DNA of 64,000 nt from Acidobacteriota bacterium (GTDB taxonomy: Bacteria > Acidobacteriota > Blastocatellia > Pyrinomonadales > Pyrinomonadaceae). Position numbers and translations under genes: made by a program. Below, in pieces: positions 4,089 to 35,822 of this stretch (position 1 is the first letter of the stretch; each line of letters starts with the position of its first letter). Below the pieces are notes generated by a model, which had not been told where the DNA came from, did not search any database, and saw only the letters and a program-made list of their open reading frames with translations. The stretch spans positions 1,471 to 65,470 of the forward strand of contig JADJBB010000005.1 in assembly GCA_016703965.1 (NCBI GenBank), read 5' to 3'.

Positions 4089-5177
4089 ATGCCCATCGAG
4101 ATCACCAAGCCAGCTACTTCGATTAATTATCGCAACCCGACCTTGATCGGGCTCGGGGCATCAATGGCTCTGACGGCACTTGTTATTGTCGGTTCGCGAA
4201 ATCTTGAGCATTTCGATTCGGCGCTATTCGGATATCTGATCGCAAGTATCGTCGCGATCGGTGCGATTTTTTTCCGCTATGCACTTTGGCTTCAGCGTCC
4301 GGCGACGCGAGCATATTTTTCTAGAGGGTTGAAGCTATTTTTCCAGCGAAAGAAATTTGCACGCAACACACTAGACGCTACAAAAACGGTAGGCATCAAT
4401 ATGCTCGCCCAGAAGTTTATCTTCAAACGGGCCAAATCAAGATGGCTGATGCATTTTCTGATCATGTGGGGCTGTATTTTGTCAGCGGCCATCACATTCC
4501 CGCTGGTATGGGGCTGGATACACTTCAAACTTGAGAGCGAAACAGGCTACAAGGCCTACGTATTCGGCTTTCCAATGCAATCGATGGACGTCCACAGCGT
4601 ACTGGCATTTTTCACGTTCAAGGCTCTCAATTTCACGGCTCTCATGGTGCTCGCGGGTTGTGCTATTGCGATCCATCGCCGCTTAAAAGACCGCGGAGCA
4701 ATAGCGGTCCAGCAATTTCTTTTGGATTTTGTTCCCCATCTTTTGTTGATCTCGATCTGCGTTTCGGGACTTATGTTAACGGCATCGAGTACATATTTCG
4801 GTGGGTATATGTACTCGTTCATTGCCCTGACCCATCAAGCGATAGTGATAATGACACTATTCTTCCTGCCGTTTGGCAAGCTATTTCATATTGTTCAGCG
4901 TCCGGCGTCGATCGGCGTTGAGCTATATCAACAGCGAGCGAAAGAAATGGAGCAGGCAAAATGTCGGCGGTGCGGCGTAGAATTCGCGTCTGTTATGTGG
5001 CTCGGCGATCTGAAGAGCGTCGTCGAAAAAGTCGGGTTTGACTACACAATGGAAAATGGTGAGAAGTTGCAGGATTATTGTCCGCGTTGCAAACGTGTAA
5101 TCCGGGGCCTTGCATACTCCGTCCTAATGGATCGCCCCGATAAGGTCTTTCACGGCTCACGCTCCGGCACCGAATAG
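4089..5177 (+). CDS. NarI/DsrM/HdrE-family membrane (di-heme b type) subunit with C-terminal Cys4 ribbon
   Basis: 362 aa, multi-pass membrane protein with His in TM helices (WLMHFLIMWG, VPHLLL, LTHQAIV). It carries the family-typical C-terminal TM motif LPFGKLFHIV. An extra cytoplasmic tail has CRRCG...CPRCK. Confidence 0.6.
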   Translation: MPIEITKPATSINYRNPTLIGLGASMALTALVIVGSRNLEHFDSALFGYLIASIVAIGAIFFRYALWLQRPATRAYFSRGLKLFFQRKKFARNTLDATKTVGINMLAQKFIFKRAKSRWLMHFLIMWGCILSAAITFPLVWGWIHFKLESETGYKAYVFGFPMQSMDVHSVLAFFTFKALNFTALMVLAGCAIAIHRRLKDRGAIAVQQFLLDFVPHLLLISICVSGLMLTASSTYFGGYMYSFIALTHQAIVIMTLFFLPFGKLFHIVQRPASIGVELYQQRAKEMEQAKCRRCGVEFASVMWLGDLKSVVEKVGFDYTMENGEKLQDYCPRCKRVIRGLAYSVLMDRPDKVFHGSRSGTE

Positions 5178-5183
5178 CAAATA

Positions 5184-7415
5184 ATGTCAAAAGTTGAGAA
5201 TCTCGCAAGTATCATTGATCGTTTCGGCCCTCATTTGCACGATGAGCCTATAGGCGGTTGGAGCGCCGAACGAAAAGTCGACAAGATGGTGCCCACCCAC
5301 TGTCCGTATTGCGGAATGCAGTGTGGCATGAATCTGCTGGTTGAAAAGAATCATGTTGTCGGCGTAGAACCGCGTTACGATTTTCCGGTAAACGAGGGCC
5401 GATTGTGTCCAAAGGGAGTGACGGCGTATCTACAGACACATCATCCCGATCGGCTGGAATACCCGCTGATAAAACAAAATGGCAATTTCGAGCGAGCGAG
5501 CTGGGACGAGGCTCTCGATCTGATCGTGGCGAAATTTAAGGGGCTGCAGGAAAAATACGGAAAGGATTCAATCGCTGTTTATTCAGGCTCGTCGCTGACG
5601 ACCGAAAAGACATATCTCGTCGGTAAATTCGCCCGCCTTGGTTTGCAGACCAGATACATTGATTACAATGGACGACTTTGCATGGCGTCCGCTGCAGGCG
5701 GCAATAACAAGGCGTTCGGCATCGACCGGGCGGCAAATCCATGGAGCGATATACCGCACGCCGAGGTTCTGATAATCGCCGGAGCAAACTGTGCTGAAAC
5801 GTTTCCCATCCTTAACGGATTCCTTTGGAAACAACGTGATAACGGCGGCGTCTGGATCGTAATCGATCCCCGCGAGACCGCGACAGCTCGTCAAGGCGAT
5901 CTGCATTTACAGCTCAAGCCCGGAACGGATGTGGCCGTTGCGAATGGCATCTTGAATGTCCTGATCAATGAGAACCTCATCGATCAGGCGTTTATCGACA
6001 GCCGCACTAATGACTGGGAAGCGGCCAGGGCGGCGGCATTGAATTATCCACCCGATGTCGCTTCAGAGATCTCCGGTGTCCCGGCGGGGAAGATCATTCA
6101 GGCCGCTCGCCTCTACGGTCGTGCAAAGACCGGAATGATCATGCATGCCCGCGGCATCGAGCATCACTCGAACGGGACGGAGAACGTGCTGAGTTATATC
6201 AATATCGCACTTGCGACCGGTAAGATCGGCTCGGAAGGCCGCGGCTACGGCACGATCACCGGTCAGGGCAACGGCCAGGGCGGCCGTGAGCATGGACAGA
6301 AGGCCGACCAACTTCCGGGCTATCGGTCGATGCTTAATCCTGAACATCGGAAGTACATTGCCGAGGTTTGGGGGATCGACGAATCTGAAATGCCTGAACC
6401 TGGCGTATCCGCCGTCGAGCTGTTTAACAAAATGCGGGAAGGCGAGATCAAAGGCCTTCTCTCGATATGCAGCAACATGATGGTCTCGCTGCCGGATACC
6501 AATCAGGTGCGGAAGTCGCTCGAGGGACTCGAATTTAACGTCTGCATCGACTTCTTTATGTCCGAGAGCGCCCGTTATGCCGACGTTGTCCTCCCCGGTA
6601 CAACATGGTCCGAAGACGAAGGTACGACCACCAGCGGCGAGGGCCGCGTGATAAAGATCAATCAAGCGATAGACCCGCCCGGTGAGGCTCGCCACGATTG
6701 GCGCGCCCTCCAGGAGATCGCTCATAGGATGGGTCGCGGAAAGTACTTTCAATTTGAGTCTCCTCGGGAGATATTTGACGAGCTCCGAGTCGCTTCCAAG
6801 GGTGGGAAGGCAGATTATTTCGGGGTCACTTACGAAAAGATCGACAAACAGGACGGCGTGTTCTGGCCATGCCCAACCGAGGAAAGCACGGGGACGCCGC
6901 GTCTTTTCGAGGAACGTTTCGCTCACGATGACGGCAAGGCAAGATTTCACGCGATCGAATATAAAGGTGCCGCAGAGAAACCCGATGAAGAGTATCCTTT
7001 GATCTTTACCAGCGGGCGTATCGTTCACCAGTATTTGTCGGGCAATCAGACCCGGCGTATTGGCTTTCTTGTTCAGCAGTGTCCGGAGCCATTCGTTGAG
7101 ATGCATCCTGAAACCGCAATGAGATACAAGATCAACGATGGCGAGCGGGTCAAGGTGATCTCGCGTCGCGGTGAAGGTATATTCCCCGCTCTGGTAGTAA
7201 AAACCATCAGGCCCGATACGATCTTTATCCCGTACCACTGGGGAGAGGAACTCGCGGCAAATCAGATAACCAACGCCGCACTCGACCCGACCTCGAAAAT
7301 ACCGGAATTCAAAGCATGTGCCGCCCGTCTCGAGAAAATACACACGAGAGAATTGCCGATACTGGGCGAGGTGCGAAAGGGAACGTCGCAAAATGAAGTG
7401 CAGAAAGGAAAATAG
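5184..7415 (+). CDS. molybdopterin (bis-MGD) oxidoreductase, Nas/NarB/Nap-like nitrate reductase catalytic subunit
   Basis: 743 aa. N-terminal 4Fe-4S motif HCPYCGMQCG...(27)...CPKG. Mo-ligand region NGRLCMASAAGGNNKAFG, as in Nap/Nas enzymes. C-terminal EFKACAARLEKI. No twin-arginine signal peptide. Confidence 0.85.
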   Translation: MSKVENLASIIDRFGPHLHDEPIGGWSAERKVDKMVPTHCPYCGMQCGMNLLVEKNHVVGVEPRYDFPVNEGRLCPKGVTAYLQTHHPDRLEYPLIKQNGNFERASWDEALDLIVAKFKGLQEKYGKDSIAVYSGSSLTTEKTYLVGKFARLGLQTRYIDYNGRLCMASAAGGNNKAFGIDRAANPWSDIPHAEVLIIAGANCAETFPILNGFLWKQRDNGGVWIVIDPRETATARQGDLHLQLKPGTDVAVANGILNVLINENLIDQAFIDSRTNDWEAARAAALNYPPDVASEISGVPAGKIIQAARLYGRAKTGMIMHARGIEHHSNGTENVLSYINIALATGKIGSEGRGYGTITGQGNGQGGREHGQKADQLPGYRSMLNPEHRKYIAEVWGIDESEMPEPGVSAVELFNKMREGEIKGLLSICSNMMVSLPDTNQVRKSLEGLEFNVCIDFFMSESARYADVVLPGTTWSEDEGTTTSGEGRVIKINQAIDPPGEARHDWRALQEIAHRMGRGKYFQFESPREIFDELRVASKGGKADYFGVTYEKIDKQDGVFWPCPTEESTGTPRLFEERFAHDDGKARFHAIEYKGAAEKPDEEYPLIFTSGRIVHQYLSGNQTRRIGFLVQQCPEPFVEMHPETAMRYKINDGERVKVISRRGEGIFPALVVKTIRPDTIFIPYHWGEELAANQITNAALDPTSKIPEFKACAARLEKIHTRELPILGEVRKGTSQNEVQKGK

Positions 7416-17371: not shown

Positions 17372-18439
17372 TTAGTCTGCGGTATCGAGCCTTTTTACCG
17401 CTTCCAGCAAGAGTTTGTCATCAGTTTGAGCGTAGACCGTTGTGATGCTCATGTCAGAGTGCGCAAACAGATTCTGCACTATAAGCGGGTTCGTATTTCG
17501 CCGGATTAGCTCGCTGGCGAAATAGCTGCGAAGATCGTGGAAGTGATAGTTCTCTTCTCTCGTTCCGCCTTTTTTGTTTATCCCAGCGTTACGGAGTGCA
17601 GTTTGCCATCGTTTACGGAAGTCTTTTACCGGGAACGGCAACTGTTTTTCATCGATCATCGCTTTCAATATCTTAGTCGCAGTTGCATTAAGCGGAACTA
17701 AACGCGGCGGTCTTCCTTTCGATCCAATGACGAATACATGTTCGTTTTCAAAATCGATAACATCTTCCGTGATCGCGACAAGTTGTCCGCGACGTAATGG
17801 AAGATTCACTGCGAGGACTATCAGTCGATAAAGCAGTGTATCCTTCTCCAACTCCGTCCAAAGCGCTTCCTTTTGTTTCGGATTTAGCAACCGTCTTCGA
17901 GGGGGCGGTTCCGGTAGAGCCTTCACGTATTGCATCGGGTTGCGTTCCAGAATTCCCTCTTCACACGCTAAGCTGAAGATCTTCGACAACGTGGACATGA
18001 TCCGGTTGATCGACGCCGATGAGAGTGCACTTTCTTTCTTCCGTTTGTTTTGGCGAGTCTGAAGTTTGGTCCGGCAGTTTCGACAGTCCTGAGGACTGAT
18101 GCTGGACAAAGTTTGCTTCTTGAAGTGACCAAGTAGAAGCCTTATATAAAGTTCCTTAGCTCCTTTGTTGACGTTGTTCTGCTGGACATAGGGCCGATAT
18201 TTCTCGTCGATGAACGAGGCAAGAGTCGTGGTGGTATCGGTAACGTTATAGCTATGATCAAAGGACGCTTTAATGATCTGCCTCTCAGCCAGCTCAGCTT
18301 CCTGTTTGGTCTTCGCTTCGGGAATACTCTGATGAATGACCTTCCCTTTCAGCCGCTTATAGATCCACCATCGGGCTTTCGAATAGTCGGGATGGGAGGA
18401 TGAGACTCGCTTACCGTTGTATCTTTTGTAGACAGACAT
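17372..18439 (-). mobile_element. int: tyrosine site-specific integrase, copy 1 (intact)
   Basis: ATG at 18439 (MSVYKRYNGKRVSS...). C-terminal catalytic region with HDLRSYFASE...LFAHSDMSITTVYA (R..HxxR..H..Y pattern). It lies next to a partial tRNA. Confidence 0.85.
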
Positions 18440-18765
18440 ATTCTTCGTTAGTAGATTTGCTCTGGTCAGTAGTCGAGGGACGTGACAAACCGGTGCCTCT
18501 CGCGTAGCCTTTCGCAAGTTCTATTCCGCTGACTGTTAGCCGCTTATTTGCTCGGAATCGGAGTGAAAAGGTGAAATTTGGAACGCCGATGCAACAGTTG
18601 GTTTTTTCCTCGCACCGTGGTTGGTGCGTCTGTTCACCAAAACGGCTCTAATTTGAGGTGCAGAAGGTTGGTTGCAAAATGGAGGCGCTTTTTCTGACGG
18701 GTGGTAGGCCGTAAATGCGGCAATCAGGGGGCTTAGCAACCCGCCCTCTCGTGGCTGTGGAGAAA

Positions 18766-18800
18766 CTACGAAAAATGGGACTTTCGGATTTCTCCGAAAG
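18766..18800 (-). terminator. intrinsic terminator following the tRNA fragment
   Basis: Hairpin CTTTCGGA-ttt-ctCCGAAAG at 18781-18800, followed on the minus strand by ...CCCATTTTTCG. The same structure recurs at 38583-38602. Confidence 0.5.
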
Positions 18801-18812
18801 CCCCATGTTTAT

Positions 18813-18857
18813 TGGTCGGGACGGCGAGATTTGAACTCACGACCTCTCGCACCCCAA
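18813..18857 (-). other. 3' part of tRNA-Pro(GGG): CCA, acceptor 3' strand, T-arm, variable loop, anticodon 3' stem and loop; no 5' half (att core)
   Basis: Reverse complement reads ...TTGGGGT-GCGAG-AGGTC-GTGAG-TTCAAAT-CTCGC-CGTCCCG-A-CCA. The T-loop TTCAAAT and anticodon loop TTGGGGT (anticodon GGG) are clear. Beyond 18857 there is no anticodon 5' stem, D-arm or CGGGACG acceptor strand. Confidence 0.6.
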
Positions 18858-19581: not shown

Positions 19582-20637
19582 TTACAACTTCAGAACTACG
19601 ATCTCTCCTTTGCTAGTTCCATAGGCAATATGCTTACCATCCGGAGAAAAAGCGAGTGATTTCACATCTCCTAAGGCTTTAATATTCTTTCGAGTTTGGT
19701 TCCCCGACATAGCCCAAACAGCCACCATTTCACAACACGTAGACACACCAGAGGACGCAAGCAATCCGCCATCAGCTGAAAATACCATGTTATAAGTAAG
19801 CTGAGATTCAGGTAGCAACAGATTTAAGGGATTATTTTTAGGAGTTCTTTGGCTCAAATCCCAGATTCTTAAACTACGAATTCCGCCGTTGTAACCACCT
19901 ACCGCGAGCGATCTGCCATTTGCCGATACCGCTATTCCCGTGATTTGTCCTAGCCGTTCCGGAATCTCCTGTACGATCTTACCTGAAATCAGGTCGTAAA
20001 CCGCGATCATAGGACCAGCATTGTCCCATCCGACTGCGGCAGCAACGACTAATTTGCCTTCTGATCCAAACAGAGGCTTCCCGATTTTTTTGACTGAAAA
20101 CCGTTTAATCTCTTTACCATCATTGGTGCTCCAGATACGAGCCATTTTTTCTGGTCCAACTGTGACAAGAGTCTTGCCGTCAGGAGAAAATACAAATTCG
20201 GAATCGTCATTTGAGAGGATAGTCTTAACTCTTAGGTTTACCGGGTCAATTAAGGCTATTCGGTTTACTTTATCGCTCTGTAAAACTTTGTTAACTACAC
20301 TCGTTTGGCTGTATGAGATAGATATCAAATCTCCCGCAGACGACACCGCCATTTGGCGAACGTGGGAAATTGTCTCCTTATGCTCACTTTTTTTTTCGTC
20401 AAGATCGAGAAACCCACTGCGACCCCCCGTAGTCAGGTTCCATTTCGCAATAGTGCCATCCCAACTTGCAGACAACAAATGACTTCCGCCGTCTGTAAAC
20501 CACAACGAAATAATGTCACCGTTGCCGTGTTTCAGTTTCGCATCCTGGGACTGCGCTAGTCCCTTCGATGACCCGGCGAACGTGATTAACATAAAAATGG
20601 TTACGATTTTTACTTTTCTACTTATCTTTAATCTCAT
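19582..20637 (-). CDS. exported WD40/beta-propeller repeat protein A (candidate immunity protein of RHS-A)
   Basis: Internal ATG at 20637 in ORF 19582..21237: MRLKISRKVKIVTIFMLITFAGSSKGLAQSQ is a Sec signal peptide. Repeated blades follow (LLSASWDGTIAKWN, FSPDGKTLVTVGPEKMARIWS, LAFSPDGKHIAYGTSKGEIVVLKL). Confidence 0.7.
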   Translation of the reverse strand: MRLKISRKVKIVTIFMLITFAGSSKGLAQSQDAKLKHGNGDIISLWFTDGGSHLLSASWDGTIAKWNLTTGGRSGFLDLDEKKSEHKETISHVRQMAVSSAGDLISISYSQTSVVNKVLQSDKVNRIALIDPVNLRVKTILSNDDSEFVFSPDGKTLVTVGPEKMARIWSTNDGKEIKRFSVKKIGKPLFGSEGKLVVAAAVGWDNAGPMIAVYDLISGKIVQEIPERLGQITGIAVSANGRSLAVGGYNGGIRSLRIWDLSQRTPKNNPLNLLLPESQLTYNMVFSADGGLLASSGVSTCCEMVAVWAMSGNQTRKNIKALGDVKSLAFSPDGKHIAYGTSKGEIVVLKL

Positions 20638-21262
20638 AACTCGGTTGAATTGTTCTTCCACTCGGCGCCCCGTCAAAGCTTTATAGATATTGACCGGATC
20701 CGCTCCGTTGATTGCGTTCCAAGCATGTGCGGTACCGCTACACCCCTTACAACCTTTCCCTCTTTCGTCGGCGTCCATATCCAGGGCTCCGAATTTCTCA
20801 CTCGTCGCGAATGACATCTGTATCTGTCCGCGATCATAGTTTTCGCGAAATGTAACATCGTAGATCACTCCCGTAGAGTCATTCTTGTGTTCAACGTCCT
20901 GACCTCCGGGGCCGATGAAGCGTTTGTCTGCCGCCGCTTTTTTGCTGCTAATACCTTCCATCTGTGTGTTAAGTTCGGCATCTGCATTCGCATATATTCG
21001 TTCTCCTTTTTTGTAACCAGTAATGCCCGTGACGTAGTTGATAGCGCTCTTTCCATTCGCAAACTTGATATCAGCCAGAGCAGCCGTCATGTTGAGTATC
21101 CCAGCCAACTGCTTTCCACCATCGACAGTCTTTAAACGTTCGTAAAGATCCTTTCCCGATAGAGAGTCTTTCCCCTTATCGACCGCAATTTTTTGAGCCA
21201 TTGAAAACTCTCTTTTCTTCGTCTGAAAGCTTGTCAAAGTCTTTCCAGACGTACTCAGTTTT
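20638..21262 (-). other. variable C-terminal toxin domain of RHS-A (~208 aa, family unassigned)
   Basis: It starts right after the core-end motif NRYTYALNNPIRAIDPTGM. The sequence KTEYVWKDFDKLSDEEKRVF...LSGKDLYERLKTVDGGKQLAGILNMTAALADIKFANGKS...GCKGCSGTAHAWNAINGADPVNIYKALTGRR is homologous to, but strongly diverged from, the copy B tail. Confidence 0.6.
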
Positions 21263-24200
21263 CATGCCGGTTGGATCGATCGCTCTTATTGGATTGTTCA
21301 AGGCATATGTATATCTGTTCCAACTTTGTGGGACATCGGCGACTGCACTCGCTTGTAACGGATCTAGAGATGAAAATCGCCCTAAAGTACAGCCGAAGTA
21401 TCGAGCCTGGGCAAAATCTAGCCCACTTTCGCTGTCCCTCTCATAACCTGTAAACTTCTGCCTCGGGGCTGATACAGAGGACCAACCACTGCCGCTTGAA
21501 CGCCCCGCACCAGACGTGACTTCTTCGCCGAATGGCATAAAGTCTCGGCGTTGCGTTACTGTTGCGGAAGAGTTCGTGACGACTCTTGGGCTACCGAGAT
21601 GATCGGGCGTAAGGTACTCGGTGCCGTTTGTTGGGTCGATGACGGCGGTTAGGCCGCTGGCTCCGTAGAGATATTCTTTTGTGATCGCATTCGTAGAGCC
21701 GTTGTATTCGGCGAGAAGTTCGCCGCCGATGCCATAGACGAAGCGTGTGTTTTCGCCGACGTATTTTCTTACGCGCTTGCCTTCGCCGTCGTAGGCGTAA
21801 GCCAAAACGGTGTCGAGTTTAAGGATTTTGTTTTCGGCATCGTAGGTGTAGGCGTGGCTCGGGTCAACAGTTAGGTTGCCCGCCGCGTCGTAGCTGTAGC
21901 CGCTGGTCGTGATCCGGTTTGTTGTACTGCTGAACGTCGGGGCTGTTCCGCTTCCAACTCCCGCCGTAATGGTTCGGTTTCCATAGCGGTCGTAACCGTT
22001 CGTCTGAGTCCAGCTGGAGCCGCTTTGCTCCTGTGCGGTTGCGAGGCGATTGAGATTGTCATAGGTAAAGTCCTGCGTAAAACTCGTTCCGCCCCGCTGT
22101 AAGCGATGCTCGTGATATTTCCATTATTCGTTGAGCTGGTGCCGTAAGTATAGCTAAGCGACATCGTAGCTCCCGACGATCCAAGTTGAATACTTGTCGG
22201 CTGAAGTCTTGTGTTGTATCCAATTGCATGAACCAGCCCATTACCCAAGGTCTGGCTCGCAATTCCGCCCTGAGCTGCATACGAAACGCTCGAAACACTG
22301 GCAGCCGCAAAGCTTCCTACGTTGTACGTTACAGCACTGGTGCTCAGGGATGACATTCTGCCAGCCGCGTCGAATGAATAGCTGACCGAACGCCGGGCGG
22401 TTCCATCACCCGGATAGGTTTGGCTCGTCATACCGTTAGCCAAATCGTACGCGGCGTCTATCTCGTAGTTCGTTGTGTCAGTTCGCTGCCACTGCTCGGT
22501 TACGCGTCCCAGTTTATCGTAGGCTCGGTACGTTCCGTTCGAACTGCTCGATCCATAAGTCACCGCAACTAGTCTTCCGATGGACGAGCCTCTTGTGTAA
22601 CTCGGTGCTCCAGACGGCAGGCTTTGGCTGTCGTAGTAGAAATAAACGGGGGCCGTAACTCCGCCATCGTTCGAATAGGTGCGAGAGGTAATTCGATTTA
22701 AGTCATCGTAAGCGTAGGAAGTCGTCCAGTTACTGCCGCTGGTTGTTCGCGGATCAACTTTGCTGGTCAGATTTCCATTTGGGTCGTAGCCATAGCTGAC
22801 CGTACCCGATTCTGGATTCACCGCCTGTGTAAGTCGGCTCAGATTGTCATAACTGAACGTTCGCGTCTGGGAGCCTTGCGAAACCGTAAGCAGATTATTT
22901 AACACGTCGTAGGTGTAATCCGTATTCACATTCAACGTGCCGCCCGAATCCGGTTCGTAGACAGTTTTCAAGCGCCCAAGAGCATCGGTTACGGATTTTC
23001 TTTGTTTGCTGGCCTGATCTGTCACGGTTACTGTGTTTCCGCTGTATGAAGTTCCAACGGACGATCCGTCGGATGTTGCGACGGCCGTTACGCGCCCCAG
23101 TGCGTCGTAAGTGTTCTCCGCGTAGCCGTATGTCGTGTCCGACGTAGTGCGAAACGGATTGTATGACCGTTTGATGCGCCCAACAGCATCATAGGTTTGC
23201 GTAGTTTTTATATAAGTCGAACTGCCCTCATATCGCCGAGTCTCGGTCGTTCGGCCAAGGCCGTCGTAGAAACTCTCCGTTTTCAAAGCATTGTCATTGT
23301 AACTCGCCAGATCGCTGGTCGTGGTTACTTTCTTGTTCGTGTCGTCATAAGCGAAAGTGGTTTGACTCTGCTCTGACTGCCCCACCGCCCGAATGATCTG
23401 CGTCGGACGGTCGAGCGATTCACTCGTCGAGTACCCGCTCGTCACTACGCCATTGACGTCCTGCCCATCGACCGGCATCCCGGTGTAGAAATCGAATTGA
23501 GAGGAGACCGTTTGGCTCAAACAGTTAGTAACGCTCGTCGCAAAGGCGTAGCTCGTCTGTGAAACGCCCGATAGCTCGGACGGAGATGTGTTAGTTGTGG
23601 CGTTTCCATTTGGCGCACCGTAGCTATCGCCATAAGCTGCCGAGGTCTCACATCCACGCGGATCGCGAATTTTCACGACGTTCCCAGCGATGTCGTATCG
23701 TTGGAAGCTTTTGACCTCGCCGGTCTCGCCTGCGGCGTTTTCATAACGCTTGATCGCAGTAGCGTTGCCTCGCGTCAGGTAGCTGGTAGTGTAGCCTGAA
23801 TCATGGCCACTGATCGACGATCTACTGGTGAGTCCCTCGTTGTAGCTGGTCGAATACTGATCGTATTCAAACTTTGTCCTCGACTTTATCGTTGAACCGG
23901 CCGAGTCACTGGAAACCCACGTCTGAGTCGGCAGATTGCGAATGTGGATCGTTCCCTGAGCCGGTGTTGCGGTCGGGGTTGGGGTCGGAGCCACGTTAAT
24001 GTAATCCGTACCGTTTACGGTCGTTGCGTAATCGGTGTGAGTTCGACGAACAAACGATCCGACTGCTCCCGACCCATAGTCGTACTCGAATACATCGGTC
24101 TGATTGTTGAATTGATCGAATCCTCGTGAACTGTCGTTTGGGTTGATAGCAGAGGTTTTCGACTTTTGGCCGTCGTCGAGAGTTGTTACGGTCTCAATGA

Positions 24201-25865
24201 GTCTGGGGTCGTAACCCGGTGCGTCGTCAGCCGTACCAGACCACCAGCTGAAGGGCGATGAAGCGGTACGCTGCTCCCAGGTATAATCCACTGTACGAAG
24301 AACGGTCGATCCGTTAGTCGCATATGCCTCTGTCTTATACTCTTTCGCCTCACGCCATTTAGTGTAGCTGTTCGCATCCGAGGTCTGACTGAATGAATAA
24401 AGAGCACTTCCGAAATACGATGATTTTTGTTTGGCAAGCAGATTGTTGCTTGCATCGCGAGTTTCGGTGACGACAGAACTTTCAGTATTACTGTTGAAAT
24501 CTGTAGGTCGTTCAATGATCAGCTTGTTCTCAAGAGTAGAGCCATCAACGTATGTTCTTCGCTCAAGAATGCGTCGATAGACTGCGTAGTCCATGTACGT
24601 CGCCGTTGCGACCACGCCGCCGTTTGTATTTCCGTATTCACCGACATCCCAGTCGTATTCTATAGCCCCGCCCGTTGGCAGATCGATCCGCGCGAGTTCG
24701 CCGTAACTTGTGTATTTGAATTGATAACTCTTTCCATTGGGAAGTATGACACCACTCTTAACCTCTGGATTGAAGTAGGTCGACGTCGAACCGTTAAGAC
24801 TCGGAAAAAGCTGCGCGTAGGTTTTCAGAGTTTGGCCAGACTTTAATACGTTCGTCAGGTTGGTTTTCGTAACAAGTATGGTTCGCGACGCTCCGCCGAA
24901 GCCTTTATAGGTTATTTTGTCGCAGAGGCCGTAGGTTCCGTCAGTATAGCCGAGAGCTATACTGACGACACGATTAAGAGAGTCCGTAACCGTGAGCGTT
25001 CCGCTGGACCCCGAGAACGTGACTTTGTTTCCGTTTCGATCCCGGATCTCGGTCAAGCTTCCGCCGACAAAAGTCCACCTGGATCCGTCCTTTAGGTACA
25101 TAATTCCGGAAGCCTCTGGAACGAAATCATCTGCGTCGGCATATGCCTCGTCAACGATGTCCGCCCCCGAAACAAAAGTCGCCGCCGAGCCGTCCGTCGT
25201 CACAAAGATCTGCCCACGGTTCTGAGCTGCTGTCGTTGGACACTGGTACATGTTACGGGTCGTATTCTTTGGCTCTCCTCCGACGCGTGAATCACGAAAC
25301 TCATATTCAGTCCCATCAGCGAGCGTTACGTTTATTCTGGACAAGGTCTTTATATAGACAGGACGGTCAGGCAAGACGTGGCTGACGCAGGTCACCGTCG
25401 CTCCGCCACCTCGTCGAATTTCGGCTCTGGCTCCCATGTATGGCGGCCGGGGATCCAGCTGTTGTAGTCGGGGTAGTTGACGATCGTGTTGTAGTCCGGA
25501 TCGACTATCTCACGTCGCACATTCCATTTCTGATCGATCTGCACTGCTAACCCGGTCGAAGCACCGCCGCGTCCTCCGACCGAGACAAGCGGCAGGCTGA
25601 AATTGAGGTTGCCGTTGTATGAGTTCACACTTTCAAAACCGCTCAACGAATACGATCCGGCGGGAGCTCCAGGGGTCAACCCGGACGGTGTTACCCCACT
25701 CAGTGCAGCCTGTGCGGACACGGACGCGGTCAGAGCGACGGAAAGTATTATCGCTACAAGAATATTTCGTGATCTGACTGACCCAGCCAAATCGGAAAAA
25801 CAGGCTGTTGACAAACTAAACATGGCACACCTCTCTTTTTCTTTACCCCTGGAGAATGAAAACAA
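20638..25865 (-). CDS. RHS/YD-repeat polymorphic toxin, copy A (Sec signal peptide; three frame breaks in this sequence)
   Basis: Pieces: 25392..25865 (signal peptide ILVAIILSVALTASVSAQA, then the N-terminal region), 21871..25437 (1188 aa), 21176..21805, and the first 200 codons of 19582..21237. Dozens of YD repeats (YTYDALGR, YSYDNLSRL, YAYDDLNRI, YAYDGEGKRV). The DPxG core end lies at about 21263-21320. Confidence 0.85.
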
Positions 25866-27029
25866 TGAGCGAATTAGACGATTTTCTATTCGGTTATCTC
25901 AAGACTTAGACTACGTGTCGGTCTTTGAATATCGACGATCCTGTATCGTCCCGGCTCGAGGGTCATCGGAATGCTAAGTCGGCGGCGATTTCGAGGCATC
26001 TCGACAGTGCGGAGCATTGAGCCATTGACTTGCTCCAATCTGAGCGTCATAAGAGGCAGTTCCGATCTGTTTACCATCGCAAGCAATACCGGGCCTTTTG
26101 GCCGACGGATCGTACTGGGCTCAAAACCTCTTGGACTGATCAAGATCAGTTCTGCGGTCATACGTTGTTCTACAGGAGGCGTCGCCGCAGCGGTTGCTTG
26201 AGGTGGAGTCGGCTGCGTCTTCGCGTCTGCTGTAACCGCAAGTTCCGGAACTCCACTTGTCACAAAAGTGAAAACGGATTCAGGAAGCACTTGCTTTGCC
26301 GCGAACACAGCCATCGATAAGAGGCCCAGAGCAAATATCACGATTACAGTCGTTTTGCGGTATTTGCGTTGGTTTCGCAAATTTGCCGTTTCCTGACCAG
26401 GCAACGGGTTGAGATCGAATTCATTTTGTTTTGACATTGATAGCTCCTCTCTCGTCAGAGACAATTAACAGGCTGGAAATAGCGGCAAATGAATACGCCG
26501 ATATCTCACTTGAGATTCGAAACGAAAAACGATTGATAAAAACTAACGAGGTGTGTAAAATGCAGAGTTGTTGGGGCTCGCTTTTACGGACACTTCGTCC
26601 CTAAACGTGAACCGAACGCCTGATCGATAATTGGCGTTATCGATCAGGCCTTTTTCAGTCCAGGTATTAATTTCAAAAAACATCTTCACCGTACAAACGG
26701 CAAAGAAAAGTCGTGTGTCACCGACGGACGCACGACTTAACTAGTAACCAAAACTCCAACCCGTAATTTTGTAAGTTTGAATTTGGAGGCACTTCGTTAC
26801 CGGCTAGTTGTAAATCCTTCGGGAGATTCAAACCAGTAACGTAAAGCTGATTGCGGGAAGCACTCGACATTTTTACCCCTTAATTCCTCGGTTTAGACAG
26901 CTAAAAAAGCCGCTGCCACTGTAGCAATCTCCGAAATAACCGAAGACTTCAAAAAACCTAAAGGTCGAATACCAAGAGCCTATCACCGAACCGTTAGCCG
27001 TGTCAATATCTTTTTTAATCTTGTTAAAC
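21405..27029. repeat. 5.6-kb direct repeat, copy A (RHS core, N-terminus, upstream gene and 565-bp leader)
   Basis: Near-identical to 31360-36980, apart from scattered 1-nt indels and a few substitutions. Identity starts at GCCTGGGCAAAATC and ends at CTTGTTAAAC. Confidence 0.9.
25886..26437 (-). CDS. single-pass membrane protein encoded upstream of RHS-A
   Basis: The ATG at 26437 (MSKQNEFDLNPLPGQ...) matches the start of the copy B ORF. One TM helix (TTVIVIFALGLLSMAVFAA), a Pro/Thr/Ala linker and a ~100-aa beta-rich C-terminal domain. Confidence 0.55.
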   Translation of the reverse strand: MSKQNEFDLNPLPGQETANLRNQRKYRKTTVIVIFALGLLSMAVFAAKQVLPESVFTFVTSGVPELAVTADAKTQPTPPQATAAATPPVEQRMTAELILISPRGFEPSTIRRPKGPVLLAMVNRSELPLMTLRLEQVNGSMLRTVEMPRNRRRLSIPMTLEPGRYRIVDIQRPTRSLSLEITE

Positions 27030-27162: not shown

Positions 27163-27217
27163 TAACATGATATATGCACAGTAACATTGATGCTGTTACT
27201 GTGCACACATCATGTTA
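27163..27217. promoter_or_regulatory. 55-bp near-perfect palindrome (candidate operator) upstream of the wHTH gene
   Basis: TAACATGATATATGCACAGTAACA-ttgatgc-TGTTACTGTGCACACATCATGTTA: 24-nt arms with 2 mismatches. It ends 14 nt before the ATG at 27232. Confidence 0.5.
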
Positions 27218-27231
27218 TTATGCTCTTGGCT

Positions 27232-28227
27232 ATGAAACGAAAGCTCATTCAGGAATTGGGAAATTATATTGAGGAAACTCTTGGTCTTTCGATCAAAGTC
27301 GACCTGTGGATCGGTAGCAGTAGTCTTCCGCTATTTCTCCGAAACCAATACGAATTCTATGAAATCACGATCATCGACAGAAATTTTCTTACCCTTGTAG
27401 ATATAAGCCCGGATGAAAAGACGCCTGGAGTAATAAGAAAGCATTTCGATTACGTTCAAAAGAATTGGAATATCGACTCAATCTATGTAACAGATTCGAT
27501 GCCAGCATATAACCGTAAGAGATTGATTGCGCACAAGATCGCCTTTATCATCCCCGGCAATCAAATGTACCTGCCGGATATCGGTGTTGATCTGCGCGAA
27601 CATTTTGCCGCCACACGGATTCCACGAAGTTCGATAATACTTAGCCCTTCAACCCAAACCGTGATCCTACACGCTCTGCTCTGTACGACCGAGACGACGT
27701 TCACCCCATCTTCCTTGGCGGATAATCTGAATTATTCCCAGATGACGATGAGCCGAGCGTTCGACGAACTTGAAGCCTTTGACTTGGGAAAGATCGAGAT
27801 TAAAGGACGAGAACGGGTTTTATATTTCGATAACGACAAGAAACATCTTTGGGAATCGGCCAAAAATAACCTCTCTAGTCCCATCAAGAAGCGATTTCAT
27901 GTACGATCCACGATAAACCATTTCGGGGTTCGCACGGGACTGACTGCACTCTCGACCTACAGTATATTGGCCGAGCCCACGACCCCAGAGTTTGCAATTA
28001 GCCCGGAAGAATGGAAAGAATTACAGAATAACGAGAAAGTTGAAACCTTTTCGGTTCCCGAGTTCGATTCGACCAATATTACGATTGAGGTTTGGAAATA
28101 CGACCCTAAGCTCTTTGCACAATCGGGAGTTGCAGATCGCTTTTCCCTGTTCTTGAGCTTGAGAAATCAGAAGGATGAACGCGTCGAGGCCGCTCTGAAT
28201 GAAATGCTGGAGAATATCGAATGGTAA
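27232..28227 (+). CDS. wHTH-containing protein, AbiEi-like antitoxin/regulator candidate
   Basis: 331 aa from the ATG at 27232 (MKRKLIQELGNY...). Central HTH-like segment (FTPSSLADNLNYSQMTMSRAFDELEAFDLGKIEIKGRERVLYF). The stop overlaps the start of the nucleotidyltransferase gene (ATGGTAA). Confidence 0.45.
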   Translation: MKRKLIQELGNYIEETLGLSIKVDLWIGSSSLPLFLRNQYEFYEITIIDRNFLTLVDISPDEKTPGVIRKHFDYVQKNWNIDSIYVTDSMPAYNRKRLIAHKIAFIIPGNQMYLPDIGVDLREHFAATRIPRSSIILSPSTQTVILHALLCTTETTFTPSSLADNLNYSQMTMSRAFDELEAFDLGKIEIKGRERVLYFDNDKKHLWESAKNNLSSPIKKRFHVRSTINHFGVRTGLTALSTYSILAEPTTPEFAISPEEWKELQNNEKVETFSVPEFDSTNITIEVWKYDPKLFAQSGVADRFSLFLSLRNQKDERVEAALNEMLENIEW

Positions 28228-28984
28228 AAGGAATCGAAAAATTCAAAGAACATTTCGCAGGATTTGACGACAAGTACATATTGATCGGCGGTTCTGCATG
28301 CGATCTGGCAATGGCGGAGGTCGGGGGCGATTTCAGGGCGACAAAGGACCTCGACATCGTAATCGTGGCTGAAACGCTGAATCCGGAATTTGTTACTCGC
28401 TTCTGGGAATTTATAGAAACAGGTGGGTATGAGTCTCGTCAGAAGAGCACAGGAGAACGACGCCTATATCGCTTTCACTCGCCTACGGATGATTCTTTTC
28501 CCTACATGATCGAACTCTTCTCGCGGATTCCTGATGCCATTTCATACGAAGGTGAAGGGAGATATACGCCTCTTCCGATAGGCGAGGAAGCGTCGAGCCT
28601 ATCCGCCCTTTTGATGGACCATGCTTATTATGAACTGGTACACGGGGAATGATTGTGATTGATGGACTGCCAATTCTCAGGCCCGAGTACATCGTTTTGT
28701 TGAAAGCCAGGGCGTGGCTGGATCTGACTGCGAGGAGGGAGAGCGGCGAGATCGTAAATAGTAACGATATAAAGAAACACAAAAACGACCCGTTCCGACT
28801 ATTCACAATTCTTTCGCCGGAATTGTGACTTGAGATATCGGAACCAGTCCGGTCCGATTTTGAGAAGTTTTTAGAAGGAATGTCCGGAGAATCTATAGAC
28901 CTTCATAATCTTGGAATCCGGGATATGGATCTGGCGGAGGTTATTAGAAACTTTAGGCAAATTTATGGAATCGACGACAGTTAA
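28221..28984 (+). CDS. nucleotidyltransferase-fold protein, AbiEii-like toxin candidate (one frame break and one in-frame TGA)
   Basis: NTase motif LIGGSACDLAMAEVGGDFRATKDLDIVIV. The frame break at the G4 run 28644-28647 is repaired by one extra G (..YELVHGGMIVIDGLPILRPEY..). After the in-frame TGA at 28826-28828 come 51 more coding-like codons (LEISEPVRSDFEKFLEGMSGESIDLHNLGIRDMDLAEVIRNFRQIYGIDDS). Confidence 0.5.
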
Positions 28985-29511: not shown

Positions 29512-30553
29512 TCAGTTGCGGTATAGTGAAATGCTTCCATCATCCGATCCCGCCGCAACGATATTAGACGAAGAATACGCAAGTGCAGTTATGGGCCTTC
29601 CAGTGCTATAGGTCTTTTTTTATGTGACGCCTTTCAACATCAAAAACAGCGATGTTTGAATTGATCGAGTTGGGAAATGCAGATATCAGCTGTTTTCCGT
29701 CGGCAGAAAACGTCAAGCCCTCACCCACCGGATGAGATTCAAAGATTTTCGATGTCCATTTCTTTGTATTAAGCAACTTAAGCACTAATCGACCTATGCC
29801 CCGTTGATTCTTGATGCCTGCAACCGCAAGCACCTTACCATCCGACGAGAAATCGACATCGAAGATTCCCGATAGTGTCGAATCCCGATGTAGTTCACGA
29901 CCATTTTGGCTATTCAACACGTAAAATGTGCCGAAGTCCTTCGGGCCACTTACGCCTTTTCCAGTTCCTATCACGATCATTGATCCATCAGGTGAAAAAG
30001 AGCTGGCAGAAATCCCAGAGTCTAACGTTAAAAAACTAGGATTTAGCACTTTAATCTCTTTAATATTTCGGAGGTCAAGAAGCTTAACAACTCCTATATC
30101 TAATCCAACTATCAACGTTTTATCGTCAGGCGACACTGCAAGTGACGTTATTAACGCCTTTGTTGGGTCGCTTTCGGTGTAGGTCGAAATTTGATTTTCC
30201 GCCTGAACATCCCAAACCGACAGCACTGATTTTCCGTTCTTTACACTCGCCGAAAAAAGAAACTTCCCAGAATGTGAAAATTCTACATCGATCACATCCG
30301 ATCCGTTATTTGTTTCAAATAAGACGTTCCACGATTCGGTGCTCCACACACTGATCTTCCCCCCAGCTCCAGCTGCGGAAAGCATGCTTCCATCTTTTGA
30401 AAAAGCCAGATCGTGAACAAAGTCTTTCAGTGACAATTTCGGTAGCTTCTTGGCACTCAATATATGAGTAGATTGACAAAGGTATTCGCTTCTTAAGAAA
30501 CTGCACACAAAAAGAGCCATTGAAAAAAATATAATGGGACGAAGTAATCTCAC
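29512..30553 (-). CDS. exported WD40/beta-propeller repeat protein B (candidate immunity protein of RHS-B)
   Basis: GTG start at 30553 with a GGAGA RBS. Signal peptide MRLLRPIIFFSMALFVCSF. Blades include LAFSKDGSMLSAAGAGGKISVWS and FSPDGSMIVIGTGKG. The track ORF stops at 29606. Shortening the T7 run at 29615-29621 by one base adds a last blade (ITALAYSSSNIVAAGSDDGSISLYRN) ending at 29512. Confidence 0.7.
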
Positions 30554-30566
30554 GGTTCAATTCTCC

Positions 30567-31185
30567 TCACCTGTTAACTTCATAGCTTAATTTAACACCC
30601 CGACTGCGTAAGATGTCGTAAACCGAATATGGGTTAGTAACTGCGTCACCGCGTGTGCCAATCAATTCGACTCCGTGACCGATTGCTCCTACTATCTTTT
30701 CAGGGGATTTTTGACTTTAATATTGTACAAATCCGTATCGGCATCAAGCCCCCGTCCATCTTTGGAAAATGACGCTTGCAGATTTTCCCTTCAAGGAGCG
30801 ATTGTCCTTCCAACTATCGTCATACCCCTCATGTCCCGGAGCTCGAGAAAACCTTGGATCCTTTGATACCAGTGTTCTAAGCTCAGATCCTACTGTCGCA
30901 TATATCCTATCTGGTGCGATTCCGACAACGCTGTCAACGAACGAAAGAGCACTTCTCGACCCGCCATCAACATTAAAAGTGATAGAGGCCAGTTGAGCGG
31001 TTTGGTTTAGGAAGCCTGCAAGAGCCGCAGGATTATTTGCTGCAAGATGATCAAATAAAGCCTCACCAGTTAATTTAATAGGTTCGAGATTTTCACCAAT
31101 CATCTGCTTAACAGTAAATTCGGAATTTTCAAGAATGCGGCGCTCGTCCGCACTTAATTTGTTCCAATCAAAAGCTGGTTCTGGG
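30567..31185 (-). other. variable C-terminal toxin domain of RHS-B
   Basis: It follows NRYTYSLNNPLKIVDPSGL. The sequence TPEPAFDWNKLSADERRILENS...LTGEALFDHLAANNPAALAGFLNQTAQLASITFNVDGGS... aligns by eye with the copy A tail. The last ~60 codons are only readable after further frame shifts (..DADTDLYNIK.., ..GTRGDAVTNPYSVYDILRSRGVKLSYEVNR, then TGA at 30567-30569). Confidence 0.5.
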
Positions 31186-34100
31186 GTTAATCCGCTTGGG
31201 TCAACTATTTTTAACGGATTGTTTAGCGAATAAGTATATCTATTCCAATTTTGTGCATTCTTGAGATAAATATTCAAATCGCTACGGTTTGACGAGTCTA
31301 CAACTATATTGTAGGGATCGGCGCTACTGAACCGGCCCACGGAACTTCCGAAATACCTCGCCTGGGCAAAATCTAGCCCACTTTCGCTGTCCCTCTCATA
31401 ACCTGTAAACTTCTGCCTCGGGGCTGATACAGAGGACCAACCACTGCCGCTTGAACGCCCCGCACCAGACGTGACTTCTTCGCCGAATGGCATAAAGTCT
31501 CGGCGTTGCGTTACTGTTGCGGAAGAGTTCGTGACGACTCTTGGGCTACCGAGATGATCGGGCGTAAGGTACTCGGTGCCGTTTGTTGGGTCGATGACGG
31601 CGGTTAGGCCGCTGGCTCCGTAGAGATATTCTTTTGTGATCGCATTCGTAGAGCCGTTGTATTCGGCGAGAAGTTCGCCGCCGATGCCATAGACGAAGCG
31701 TGTGTTTTCGCCGACGTATTTTCTTACGCGCTTGCCTTCGCCGTCGTAGGCGTAAGCCAAAACGGTGTCGAGTTTAAGGATTTTGTTTTCGGCATCGTAG
31801 GTGTAGGCGTGGCTCGGGTCAACAGTTAGGTTGCCCGCCGCGTCGTAGCTGTAGCCGCTGGTCGTGATCCGGTTTGTTGTACTGCTGAACGTCGGGGCTG
31901 TTCCGCTTCCAACTCCCGCCGTAATGGTTCGGTTTCCATAGCGGTCGTAACCGTTCGTCTGAGTCCAGCTGGAGCCGCTTTGCTCCTGTGCGGTTGCGAG
32001 GCGATTGAGATTGTCATAGGTAAAGTCCTGCGTAAAACTCGTTCCGCCCCCGCTGTAAGCGATGCTCGTGATATTTCCATTATTCGTTGAGCTGGTGCCG
32101 TAAGTATAGCTAAGCGACATCGTAGCTCCCGACGATCCAAGTTGAATACTTGTCGGCTGAAGTCTTGTGTTGTATCCAATTGCATGAACCAGCCCATTAC
32201 CCAAGGTCTGGCTCGCAATTCCGCCCCTGAGCTGCATACGAAACGCTCGAAACACTGGCAGCCGCAAAGCTTCCTACGTTGTACGTTACAGCACTGGTGC
32301 TCAGGGATGACATTCTGCCAGCCGCGTCGAATGAATAGCTGACCGAACGCCGGGCGGTTCCATCACCCGGATAGGTTTGGCTCGTCATACCGTTAGCCAA
32401 ATCGTACGCGGCGTCTATCTCGTAGTTCGTTGTGTCAGTTCGCTGCCACTGCTCGGTTACGCGTCCCAGTTTATCGTAGGCTCGGTACGTTCCGTTCGAA
32501 CTGCTCGATCCATAAGTCACCGCAACTAGTCTTCCGATGGACGAGCCTCTTGTGTAACTCGGTGCTCCAGACGGCAGGCTTTGGCTGTCGTAGTAGAAAT
32601 AAACGGGGGCCGTAACTCCGCCATCGTTCGAATAGGTGCGAGAGGTAATTCGATTTAAGTCATCGTAAGCGTAGGAAGTCGTCCAGTTACTGCCGCTGGT
32701 TGTTCGCGGATCAACTTTGCTGGTCAGATTTCCATTTGGGTCGTAGCCATAGCTGACCGTACCCGATTCTGGATTCACCGCCTGTGTAAGTCGGCTCAGA
32801 TTGTCATAACTGAACGTTCGCGTCTGGGAGCCTTGCGGAAACCGTAAGCAGATTATTTAACACGTCGTAGGTGTAATCCGTATTCACATTCAACGTGCCG
32901 CCCGAATCCGGTTCGTAGACAGTTTTCAAGCTTCCAAGAGCATCGGTTACGGATTTTCTTTGTTTGCTGGCCTGATCTGTCACGGTTACTGTGTTTCCGC
33001 TGTATGAAGTTCCAACGGACGATCCGTCGGATGTTGCGACGGCCGTTACGCGCCCCAGTGCGTCGTAAGTGTTCTCCGCGTAGCCGTATGTCGTGTCCGA
33101 CGTAGTGCGAAACGGATTGTATGACCGTTTGATGCGCCCAACAGCATCATAGGTTTGCGTAGTTTTATATAAGTCGAACTGCCCTCATATCGCCGAGTCT
33201 CGGTCGTTCGGCCAAGGCCGTCGTAGAAACTCTCCGTTTTCAAAGCATTGTCATTGTAACTCGCCAGATCGCTGGTCGTGGTTACTTTCTTGTTCGTGTC
33301 GTCATAAGCGAAAGTGGTTTGACTCTGCTCTGACTGCCCCACCGCCCGAATGATCTGCGTCGGACGGTCGAGCGATTCCTCGTCGAGTACCCGCTCGTCA
33401 CTACGCCATTGACGTCCTGCCCATCGACCGGCATCCCGGTGTAGAAATCGAATTGAGAGGAGACCGTTTGGCTCAAACAGTTAGTAACGCTCTCGTCGCA
33501 AAGGCGTAGCTCGTCTGTGAAACGCCCGATAGCTCGGACGGAGATGTGTTAGTTGTGGCGTTTCCATTTGGCGCACCGTAGCTATCGCCATAAGCTGCCG
33601 AGGTCTCACATCCACGCGGATCGCGAATTTTCACGACGTTCCCAGCGATATCGTATCGTTGGAAGCTTTTGACCTCGCCGTCTCGCCTGCGGCGTTTTCA
33701 TAACCTTGATCGCAGTAGCGTTGCCTCGCGTCAGGTAGCTGGTAGTGTAGCCTGAATCATGGCCACTGATCGACGATCTACTGGTGAGTCCTCGTTGTAG
33801 CTGGTCGAATACTGATCGTATTCAAACTTTGTCCTCGACTTTATCGTTGAACCGGCCGAGTCACTGGAAACCCACGTCTGAGTCGGCAGATTGCGAATGT
33901 GGATCGTTCCCTGAGCCGGTGTTGCGGTCGGGGTTGGGGTCGGAGCCACGTTAATGTAATCCGTACCGTTTACGGTCGTTGCGTAATCGGTGTGAGTTCG
34001 ACGAACAAACGATCCGACTGCTCCCCGGCCCATAGTCGTACTCGAATACATCGGTCTGATTGTTGAATTGATCGAATCCTCGTGAACTGTCGTTTGGGTT

Positions 34101-35822
34101 GATAGCAGAGGTTTTCGACTTTTGGCCGTCGTCGAGAGTTGTTACGGTCTCAATGAGTCTGGGGTCGTAACCCGGTGCGTCGTCAGCCGTACCAGACCAC
34201 CAGCTGAAGGGCGATGAAGCGGTACGCTGCTCCCAGGTATAATCCACTGTACGAAGAACGGTCGATCCGTTAGTCGCATATGCCCCCTGTCTTATACTCT
34301 TTCGCCTCACGCCATTTAGTGTAGCTGTTCGCATCCGAGGTCTGACTGAATGAATAAAGAGCACTTCCGAAATACGATGATTTTTGTTTGGCAAGCAGAT
34401 TGTTGCTTGCATCGCGAGTTTCGGTGACGACAGAACTTTCAGTATTACTGTTGAAATCTGTAGGTCGTTCAATGATCAGCTTGTTCTCAAGAGTAGAGCC
34501 ATCAACGTATGTTCTTCGCTCAAGAATGCGTCGATAGACTGCGTAGTCCATGTACGTCGCCGTTGCGACCACGCCGCCGTTTGTATTTCCGTATTCACCG
34601 ACATCCCAGTCGTATTCTATAGCCCCGCCCGTTGGCAGATCGATCCGCGCGAGTTCGCCGTAACTTGTGTATTTGAATTGATAACTCTTTCCATTGGGAA
34701 GTATGACACCACTCTTAACCTCTGGATTGAAGTAGGTCGACGTCGAACCGTTAAGACTCGGAAAAAGCTAGCGTAGGTTTTCAGAGTTTGGCCAGACTTT
34801 AATACGTTCGTCAGGTTGGTTTTCGTAACAAGTATGGTTCGCGACGCTCCGCCGAAGCCTTTATAGGTTATTTTGTCGCAGAGGTCGTAGGGTCCGTCAG
34901 TATAGCCGAGAGCTATACTGACGACACGATTAAGAGAGTCCGTAACCGTGAGCGTTCCGCTGGACCCAGAGAACGTGACTTTGTTTCCGTTTCGATCCCG
35001 GATCTCGGTCAAGCTTCCGCCGACAAAAGTCCACCTGGATCCGTCCTTTAGGTACATAATTCCGGAAGCCTCTGGAACGAAATCATCTGCGTCGGCATAT
35101 GCCTCGTCAACGATGTCCGCCCCCGAAACAAAAGTCGCCGCCGAGCCGTCCGTCGTCACAAAGATCTGCCCACGGTTCTGAGCTGCTGTCGTTGGACACT
35201 GGGTACATGTTACGGGTCGTATTCTTTGGCTCTCCTCCGACGCGTGAATCACGAAACTCATATTCAGTCCCATCAGCGAGCGTTACGTTTATTCTGGACA
35301 AGGTCTTTATATAGACAGGACGGTCAGGCAAGACGTGGCTGACGCAGGTCACCGTCGCTCCGCCACCTCGTCGAATTTCGGCTCTGGCTCCCATGTATGG
35401 CGGCCGGGGATCCAGCTGTTGTAGTCGGGGTAGTTGACGATCGTGTTGTAGTCCGGATCGACTATCTCACGTCGCACATTCCATTTCTGATCGATCTGCA
35501 CTGCTAACCCGGTCGAAGCACCGCCGCGTCCTCCGACCGAGACAAGCGGCAGGCTGAAATTGAGGTTGCCGTTGTATGAGTTCACACTTTCAAAACCGCT
35601 CAACGAATACGATCCGGCGGGAGCTCCAGGGGTCAACCCGGACGGTGTTACCCCACTCAGTGCAGCCTGTGCGGACACGGACGCGGTCAGAGCGACGGAA
35701 AGTATTATCGCTACAAGAATATTTCGTGATCTGACTGACCCAGCCAAATCGGAAAAACAGGCTGTTGACAAACTAAACATGGCACACCTCTCTTTTTCTT
35801 TACCCCTGGAGAATGAAAACAA
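30567..35822 (-). pseudogene. RHS/YD-repeat polymorphic toxin, copy B (about ten frame breaks)
   Basis: The gene is fragmented into ORFs 35349..35822, 35107..35394, 34617..35273, 34270..34572, 33951..34472, 33731..34051, 33282..33476, 33046..33342, 32197..32778 and 30744..32267. All are collinear with copy A. It differs from copy A by indels and some substitutions (for example GTYGLCD versus GPYDLCD). Confidence 0.8.

Follow-up and report, generated by a model that had tools for sequence, protein, structure and literature searches.

Two RHS toxin loci of an acidobacterium carry tips of a new family, each followed by a putative exported WD40 propeller immunity protein

The window analyzed here, a stretch of 64,000 nucleotides (nt) of contig JADJBB010000005.1 from an Acidobacteriota bacterium of the family Pyrinomonadaceae (GCA_016703965.1), carries two RHS loci on its minus strand. 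Locus A (26464-19582) and locus B (36394-29512), delineated from the listing of open reading frames (ORFs) and three-frame translation, share the same gene order: an ORF of 183-192 amino acids (aa), an RHS protein with a Sec-type signal peptide (...RNILVAIILSVALTASVSAQA), a C-terminal tail representing the putative toxin domain, and a gene coding for a WD40-repeat protein (Table 1). A preliminary description of this DNA had reported a tail and a WD40 partner in two copies; both are present, and the coordinates and hand repairs given at the time turned out to be essentially right.

The RHS core matched the Pfam family RHS_repeat (PF05593, E = 1.6e-23 over positions 21871-25437 of the window) as well as DUF6443. 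Cores A and B (21405-26700 and 31360-36650; 5.3 kb) show ~99.5% identity, most of their differences being single-base indels. This identity stops at 21405 and 31360, ~47 codons ahead of the motifs DPTGM and DPSGL, and past the junction the two sequences differ yet remain alignable. Tail A begins with the lysine encoded at 21262, directly after DPTGM, and tail B begins at 31187, after DPSGL. RHS repeats, a DPxG(L/M) junction, and a shared core bearing differing tips place both proteins in the RHS/YD polymorphic toxin class. In the part of the window that was scanned, none of the features of the Rhs effectors of type VI secretion systems (T6SS) was found, namely a PAAR domain or a VgrG, Hcp or Eag neighbor; the scanned genes flanking the RHS loci are an integrase, a sigma factor, a methyltransferase and unknowns. 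Tail A and WD40 A overlap by 20 nt, the ATG of the latter lying at 20637, ahead of the tail stop codon. At locus B, a 13-nt gap separates the tail stop from the GTG start of WD40 B, which is preceded by GGAG. A spacing of 0-14 nt had initially been given for both pairs.

Table 1. Features of the two RHS loci, with positions in the window.
Feature	Position	Strand	Description
RHS A	21263..25865	-	Sec signal peptide and RHS/YD core, ends DPTGM; Pfam RHS_repeat and DUF6443
RHS B	31188..35822	-	paralogous core, same signal peptide as RHS A, ends DPSGL
Tail A	20618..21262	-	214 aa, C-terminal putative toxin domain; stop codon 20620-20618
Tail B	30567..31187	-	206 aa, diverged relative of tail A; stop codon 30569-30567
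WD40 A	19582..20637	-	351 aa, seven-bladed propeller, signal peptide MRLKISRKVKIVTIFMLITFAGSSKGLA; putative cognate immunity protein
WD40 B	29512..30553	-	346 aa propeller, N-terminal signal MRLLRPIIFFSMALFVCSFL, GTG start
Upstream ORF	25886..26464	-	192 aa, single hydrophobic segment; second copy at 35843-36394

In the window itself, homopolymer indels split RHS A into three ORFs, and many of them break up RHS B. Indels were located in tail A at 21194 (+A) and 20665 (-C), in tail B at 30786 (+A) and 30700 (-A), in WD40 B at 29621, and further at 28647, 26655 and 25452 (RHS A). Their artefactual products include a 551-aa ORF that fuses tail and WD40 (19582-21237) and a WD40 B cut to 315 aa. 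A metagenome scan provided three short-read contigs of the same species (L005, L007 and L008) that are 99.9% identical to the window, and all differences between them and the window are one-base homopolymer indels. Both tail and WD40 pairs are intact and form separate genes in L005/L008, the frames of RHS B are intact in L007 and L008, and so is tail B in these two contigs, its motifs GNLQASF and DADTD included. Intact WD40 A protein (cluster P0238/P0370, 351 aa) was moreover found on at least nine other contigs, and intact WD40 B protein (cluster P0240/P0361, 346 aa) on 22. Since the differences are confined to homopolymers and the short-read copies are intact, the genes of the window are to be read as intact. 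The public records hold a 539-aa 'fusion' protein and a shortened 315-aa WD40 because homopolymer errors were left uncorrected in a metagenome-assembled genome built from long reads.

Tails A and B are 38% identical across 136 aa in a local alignment and a single profile fits both, which bears out their earlier alignment by eye. Neither matched any family of Pfam or NCBIfam at E < 0.01; members of their family matched nothing in PADLOC, no family was weakly common to 51 members, and searches of PDB sequences with the tail family profile (best E = 0.78), P0113 and P0060 returned nothing significant. The failure to assign the tail in the preliminary description therefore extends to Pfam, NCBIfam, PADLOC and the PDB sequences. 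A RAP-domain match to the tail profile (E = 0.78) was judged to be noise or at most a weak lead. Relatives of the tail were recovered in numbers that depended on the method. Only four came from a word-indexed search, and exhaustive profile searching recovered 120 cluster representatives at E ≤ 1e-3, 40 of them at E ≤ 1e-10. An alignment-based search for homologues was dominated by a standalone family of ~320 aa and gained one extra RHS example, and profile scans of genome contigs gave no match with alignment A2 and two acidobacterial genomes with alignment A5.

RHS proteins unrelated to one another (P0005, P0006, P0009, P0016, P0022, P0040 and P0061) carry the tail domain at their C-terminus, and RHS repeats (PF05593) were also detected on the homologous carriers P0006, P0016, P0040 and P0061. 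The domain further lies behind a WXG100 domain of type VII secretion systems (P0020) and behind a bare signal peptide or lipobox (P0015, P0018, P0029, P0032 and P0035), and orphan tail cassettes adjoin integrases or transposases (L001, L002 and L003). RHS, WXG100 and signal-peptide carriers together with orphan cassettes identify the tail, by its distribution, as a polymorphic toxin domain. Fusions to a TIR domain (P0109) and, through a membrane segment and a coiled coil, to nSTAND1 nucleoside triphosphatases (P0103 and P0114) are architectures typical of conflict or defense systems. More distant relatives are standalone proteins of ~290-320 aa with an immunoglobulin-like N-terminal domain and no signal peptide (P0113, P0158 and P0060). 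They are abundant in Blastocatellia and Pyrinomonadaceae and are found amid ordinary genes, with neither a WD40 nor any other partner (e.g., L011 6001-6969). This standalone family is possibly a housekeeping ancestor of the toxin domain.

AlphaFold2 modeling of the tail from a 51-sequence alignment reached a predicted local distance difference test (pLDDT) of 91.7 and a predicted template-modeling score (pTM) of 0.91; an earlier run on a 5-sequence alignment had yielded an unusable model (pLDDT 53). The predicted fold is of the alpha+beta type: its N-terminal part is helical, about seven strands make up a sheet, and a helix lies at the C-terminus. Foldseek, whose use on the tail had been proposed in the preliminary description, found no match to this model in PDB (best E = 0.3) or BFVD (best E = 0.03), with TM scores below 0.3. 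The tail domain is hence a confidently predicted fold for which the PDB search returned no solved relative. Non-significant matches were of the Bet v1/START-like kind (4igx, 4rei, a viral SRPBCC protein and, for one member, Pfam START_2), and these may represent either noise or a weak lead.

Over 92 sequences, nine residues are 90-99% conserved (N57, R88, H125, Q148, F151, D161, D163, H179 and P189, in tail A numbering), and D165, which completes a DxDxD motif, is conserved in 80%. This near-invariant set of N, R, H, Q, DxDxD and H residues suggests that the tail is an enzyme and fits a catalytic, probably metal-binding, center. A CxxC pair (CKGCSG) was also observed in tail A between residues 170 and 180 (~20755-20720), in a low-confidence loop following the DxDxD strand. 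It reads CPYCGS or CQNCAD in relatives, is restricted to some subfamilies, and may form a disulfide or a metal knuckle.

The partners encoded downstream of the tails are complete propellers. WD40 A and WD40 B scored 54.3 and 59.1 bits against PF00400, for a Pfam cut-off of 27, and spanned seven-bladed propeller profiles end to end (Beta-prop_THOC3 was covered from 5 to 271 of its 272 positions). A profile built from eight partners matched the structures of 2YMU, PkwA and WDR5 at 1e-35 to 1e-120. All 13 of the WD40 partners examined carry a basic n-region and a hydrophobic stretch of 10-15 residues before the first blade, which is itself preceded by a polar c-region; these signal peptide calls rest on hydropathy (Kyte-Doolittle > 2.2 over 11 residues) and inspection. 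The WD40 protein of ~350 aa with a signal peptide that had first been described is thus recovered at both loci, and the N-terminus of WD40 B may be a signal anchor instead of a cleaved peptide.

A tail followed by a WD40 gene was found in 13 loci, the two of the window and 11 further ones. Starting from the tail, a WD40 protein of ~350 aa with a signal was encountered at window A and B and in L001, L002, L003, L004, L009, L010 (P0006), L013 (P0016), L022 and L023; starting from the WD40, a tail domain was present directly upstream of each of the three closest new family members (P0242, P0244 and P0239). Among the linked loci, the position of the WD40 start ranges from a 20-nt overlap to 13 nt past the tail stop. 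WD40 A and WD40 B are only 28% identical beside nearly identical cores, which indicates that the WD40 tracks the tail and not the delivery scaffold. The closest tail to tail B (L013, 56% identity) likewise comes with the closest WD40 (38%). The divergence of the WD40 partners along with the tails, already noted in the preliminary description, is reflected in the correlation between tail identity and WD40 identity (r = 0.87 over 28 pairs). In the orphan array of L003, the WD40 occupies the slot that a small lipoprotein fills after the neighboring, unrelated RHS tip. In a distant tail subfamily (RHS protein P0061, L015), the gene after the tail codes not for a WD40 but for a 179-aa protein of unrelated sequence that bears a signal peptide (MKKNILFFMVLLFLL..., 5080-5646) and looks like a second, different exported partner. 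Every locus with a named source belongs to Acidobacteriota.

In L003 (2-1480) and L022 (2362-2901), the tail-WD40 cassette is flanked by further orphan RHS tips, which makes both loci arrays of toxin-immunity cassettes. In L010 (6699-7850) and L023 (5830-7380), two unrelated loci, the genes right after the WD40 code for secreted proteins that resemble each other (…QWTTPD.N.NI.NTN.GNVGVGTT.PG…) and may belong to this neighborhood.

Taken together, the two loci probably code for RHS polymorphic toxins with a new family of tip, each provided with a cognate, exported, seven-bladed WD40 immunity protein, as judged from sequence comparison. A toxin-immunity module is the most economical reading of the tail and WD40 pair, and the gene order, the co-divergence and the export signals make the WD40 very probably the antidote of the tail. 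The interpretation given in the preliminary description is in this respect supported. The proposed mechanism would involve passage of the RHS protein across the inner membrane of the producer by Sec and release of the tail after autoproteolysis at the DPxG(L/M) junction. The freed tail would then attack a substrate in the periplasm or envelope, as an enzyme of the hydrolase type that probably depends on a metal. In the periplasm of the producer, the WD40 would bind the toxin directly and in an allele-specific manner, most likely with one face of the propeller, and thereby block it. For the tail we favor, with low confidence, the activity of a metal-assisted hydrolase whose substrate lies in the envelope. 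Action in the periplasm or on the envelope is the most likely location given the predicted signals, because the WD40 is exported in every pair and the L015-type partner is exported too, and because the RHS protein has a Sec signal and plain secreted or lipoprotein forms are numerous in the family.

Three points weigh against this interpretation. Distant relatives of the tail either have no signal peptide or are fused to a cytoplasmic TIR domain, so that no strict link exists between the fold and the periplasm. The 28 pairs on which the correlation of tail and WD40 identities is based are not phylogenetically independent. Finally, both toxin activity and immunity reportedly depend on PefE, the immunity protein of Proteus mirabilis that is the closest precedent (bioRxiv 10.1101/2023.03.28.534661), and a chaperone or activator role would here be hard to tell apart from immunity.

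We also considered a more ambitious version of the toxin-immunity interpretation, which is tentative and on balance rather doubtful. It would combine a new fold, a catalytic center made of the N/R/H/Q/DxDxD/H residues, and a periplasmic, possibly lipid-linked envelope substrate, this last element being proposed because the weak, non-significant helix-grip/START echoes point there. The WD40 partners would form the first sequence-defined, family-wide class of full WD40 immunity proteins, the same module would have been recruited to TIR/nSTAND conflict proteins, and its origin would lie in the abundant standalone family of acidobacterial enzymes.

The strongest competitor to an antidote role is that the WD40 acts mainly as an accessory of the toxin, i.e., as a periplasmic chaperone, activator, loading factor or target-binding subunit, possibly inhibitory as well. 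WD40 propellers are generic scaffolds, propeller lectins are described in the literature as targeting subunits of umbrella toxins, and disruption of pefE abolishes the activity of PefD, PefE being proposed as a chaperone (bioRxiv 10.1101/2023.03.28.534661). Nevertheless, an accessory of the delivered toxin is not what the distribution points to: variation in the WD40 follows the tail, not the RHS core, the WD40 is kept beside orphan tail cassettes that have no delivery scaffold, no other conserved candidate immunity gene lies next to the tail, and the distant subfamily swaps in an unrelated small exported protein, as is typical of immunity turnover. We consider this explanation unlikely. An accessory function fits poorly as the sole role of the WD40 and may be an additional one.

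That the tail is not antibacterial at all, with a eukaryotic predator or host as its target or with a non-toxic role, and that the WD40 is co-secreted for reasons unrelated to self-protection, strikes us as quite improbable. The RHS proteins, with their Sec signal only and no T6SS, PAAR or VgrG context in the scanned part of the window, would be compatible with it, as would the ~320-aa standalone relatives found amid ordinary genes with no partner. Hallmarks of interbacterial toxin-immunity systems are, however, present, namely the allele-specific divergence of the tail together with a tightly coupled gene downstream and the arrays in which orphan tails keep their partners. Tc or RHS toxins directed against eukaryotes are normally devoid of a partner of this kind, which also counts against a non-antibacterial role. 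Lastly, the pairing itself could have been an artefact, either of a true toxin-propeller fusion or of decayed pseudogenes with a chance neighbor, as the in-frame 551-aa ORF running across tail and WD40 in the raw window and the many frameshifts might suggest. This explanation is refuted and retains practically no likelihood: all differences from the short-read contigs are homopolymer indels, tail and WD40 are separate intact genes in these contigs, intact copies exist on 9-22 other contigs, and the pairing recurs in 11 other loci.

Like the RHS/YD toxins, among them the Sec-dependent class (Zhang et al., 2012), the WapA-type and the T6SS Rhs proteins, the proteins of the window have a shell, a DPxG(L/M) junction and a variable tip, together with a cognate gene downstream, orphan cassettes of a tip and its partner, and paralogues in which the same core carries different tips. 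They differ from them in that the tip falls into none of the described families and lacks a structural relative among solved proteins, that a full, exported WD40 propeller of ~350 aa takes the place of a small immunity protein, and that delivery here, in a diderm acidobacterium, involves no signal other than Sec. The survey of Zhang et al., 2012 (PMC3482391) states that no beta-propeller had been found to serve as an immunity protein, in agreement with the earlier remark that a propeller would be unusual in this position. This rarity is qualified by two partial precedents, PefE and Tsi1.

PefE of P. mirabilis, a 320-aa protein predicted by Phyre to be a bladed propeller, has a demonstrated immunity function (PMC5714391). 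The PefD/PefE pair resembles the present one by its toxin-adjacent immunity gene coding for a predicted bladed propeller of ~320 aa, a likeness that rests on the published Phyre model, by its allele-dependent specificity, and by the orphan copy pefE2, which follows an rhs fragment. PefD, unlike the toxins described here, is a PAAR-type effector of a T6SS with a putative nuclease-like domain, and the partners described here, unlike PefE, have canonical WD40 repeats and signal peptides and are confined to Acidobacteriota. Tsi1 of Pseudomonas aeruginosa is a periplasmic partial propeller (PMC3391265), and the Tse1/Tsi1 pair thus opposes a propeller-like immunity protein of the periplasm to a periplasm-acting toxin, the latter trait being presumed for the tail. 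Tsi1 is a small, three-sheet partial propeller resembling blades of DPP-IV, whereas the partners studied here are complete, seven-bladed and of the WD40 type, and Tse1 has an assigned activity, that of an NlpC/P60-type amidase, and is delivered by a T6SS. 2YMU (a WD40 protein of Nostoc), PkwA (5YZV) and WDR5 share the repeat type and the blade number of these partners. They are, in contrast, cytoplasmic scaffolds or parts of larger proteins, whereas each partner is a lone propeller with a signal peptide, and the WD40 family is strictly linked to one toxin domain.

What is known in these loci is the RHS polymorphic toxin class; what is new is the toxin family and its unusual class of WD40 partner, documented by 13 loci. 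Polymorphic toxins are a productive source of new enzymes and antibacterial targets, and the tail domain offers both a clear candidate active site and natural, putative inhibitors. If the partners are indeed antidotes, the WD40 propeller, the commonest eukaryote-style interaction scaffold, would join the repertoire of immunity proteins. With two alleles in the window and 11 further pairs, specificity can be studied on cognate as well as non-cognate combinations, and the natural presence of both next to each other makes the pair a good subject for experiments. Since the partner is exported, the search for a target can concentrate on the cell envelope. Moreover, these loci document RHS toxins with a Sec signal in the phylum Acidobacteriota, where antagonism between bacteria has hardly been studied.

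Several features surround these genes. The conserved upstream ORF (25886..26464) has no Pfam match and falls within the duplicated block, and its membership in the system is uncertain. Between the two RHS loci, the plus strand carries two ORFs of 346 and 143 aa (27187-28652) with no match in Pfam, the shorter of which is truncated by the indel at 28647. Genes coding for tyrosine recombinases, together with their flanks, bracket both RHS loci at 17372-18857 and 37179-38659; these repeats are 78-91% identical at the DNA level, and the recombinase copy at 37-38 kb is broken into two ORFs. The window and contig L005, from the same species, diverge at position 18839, precisely on the edge of the recombinase repeat, which suggests the boundary of an island or of an insertion.

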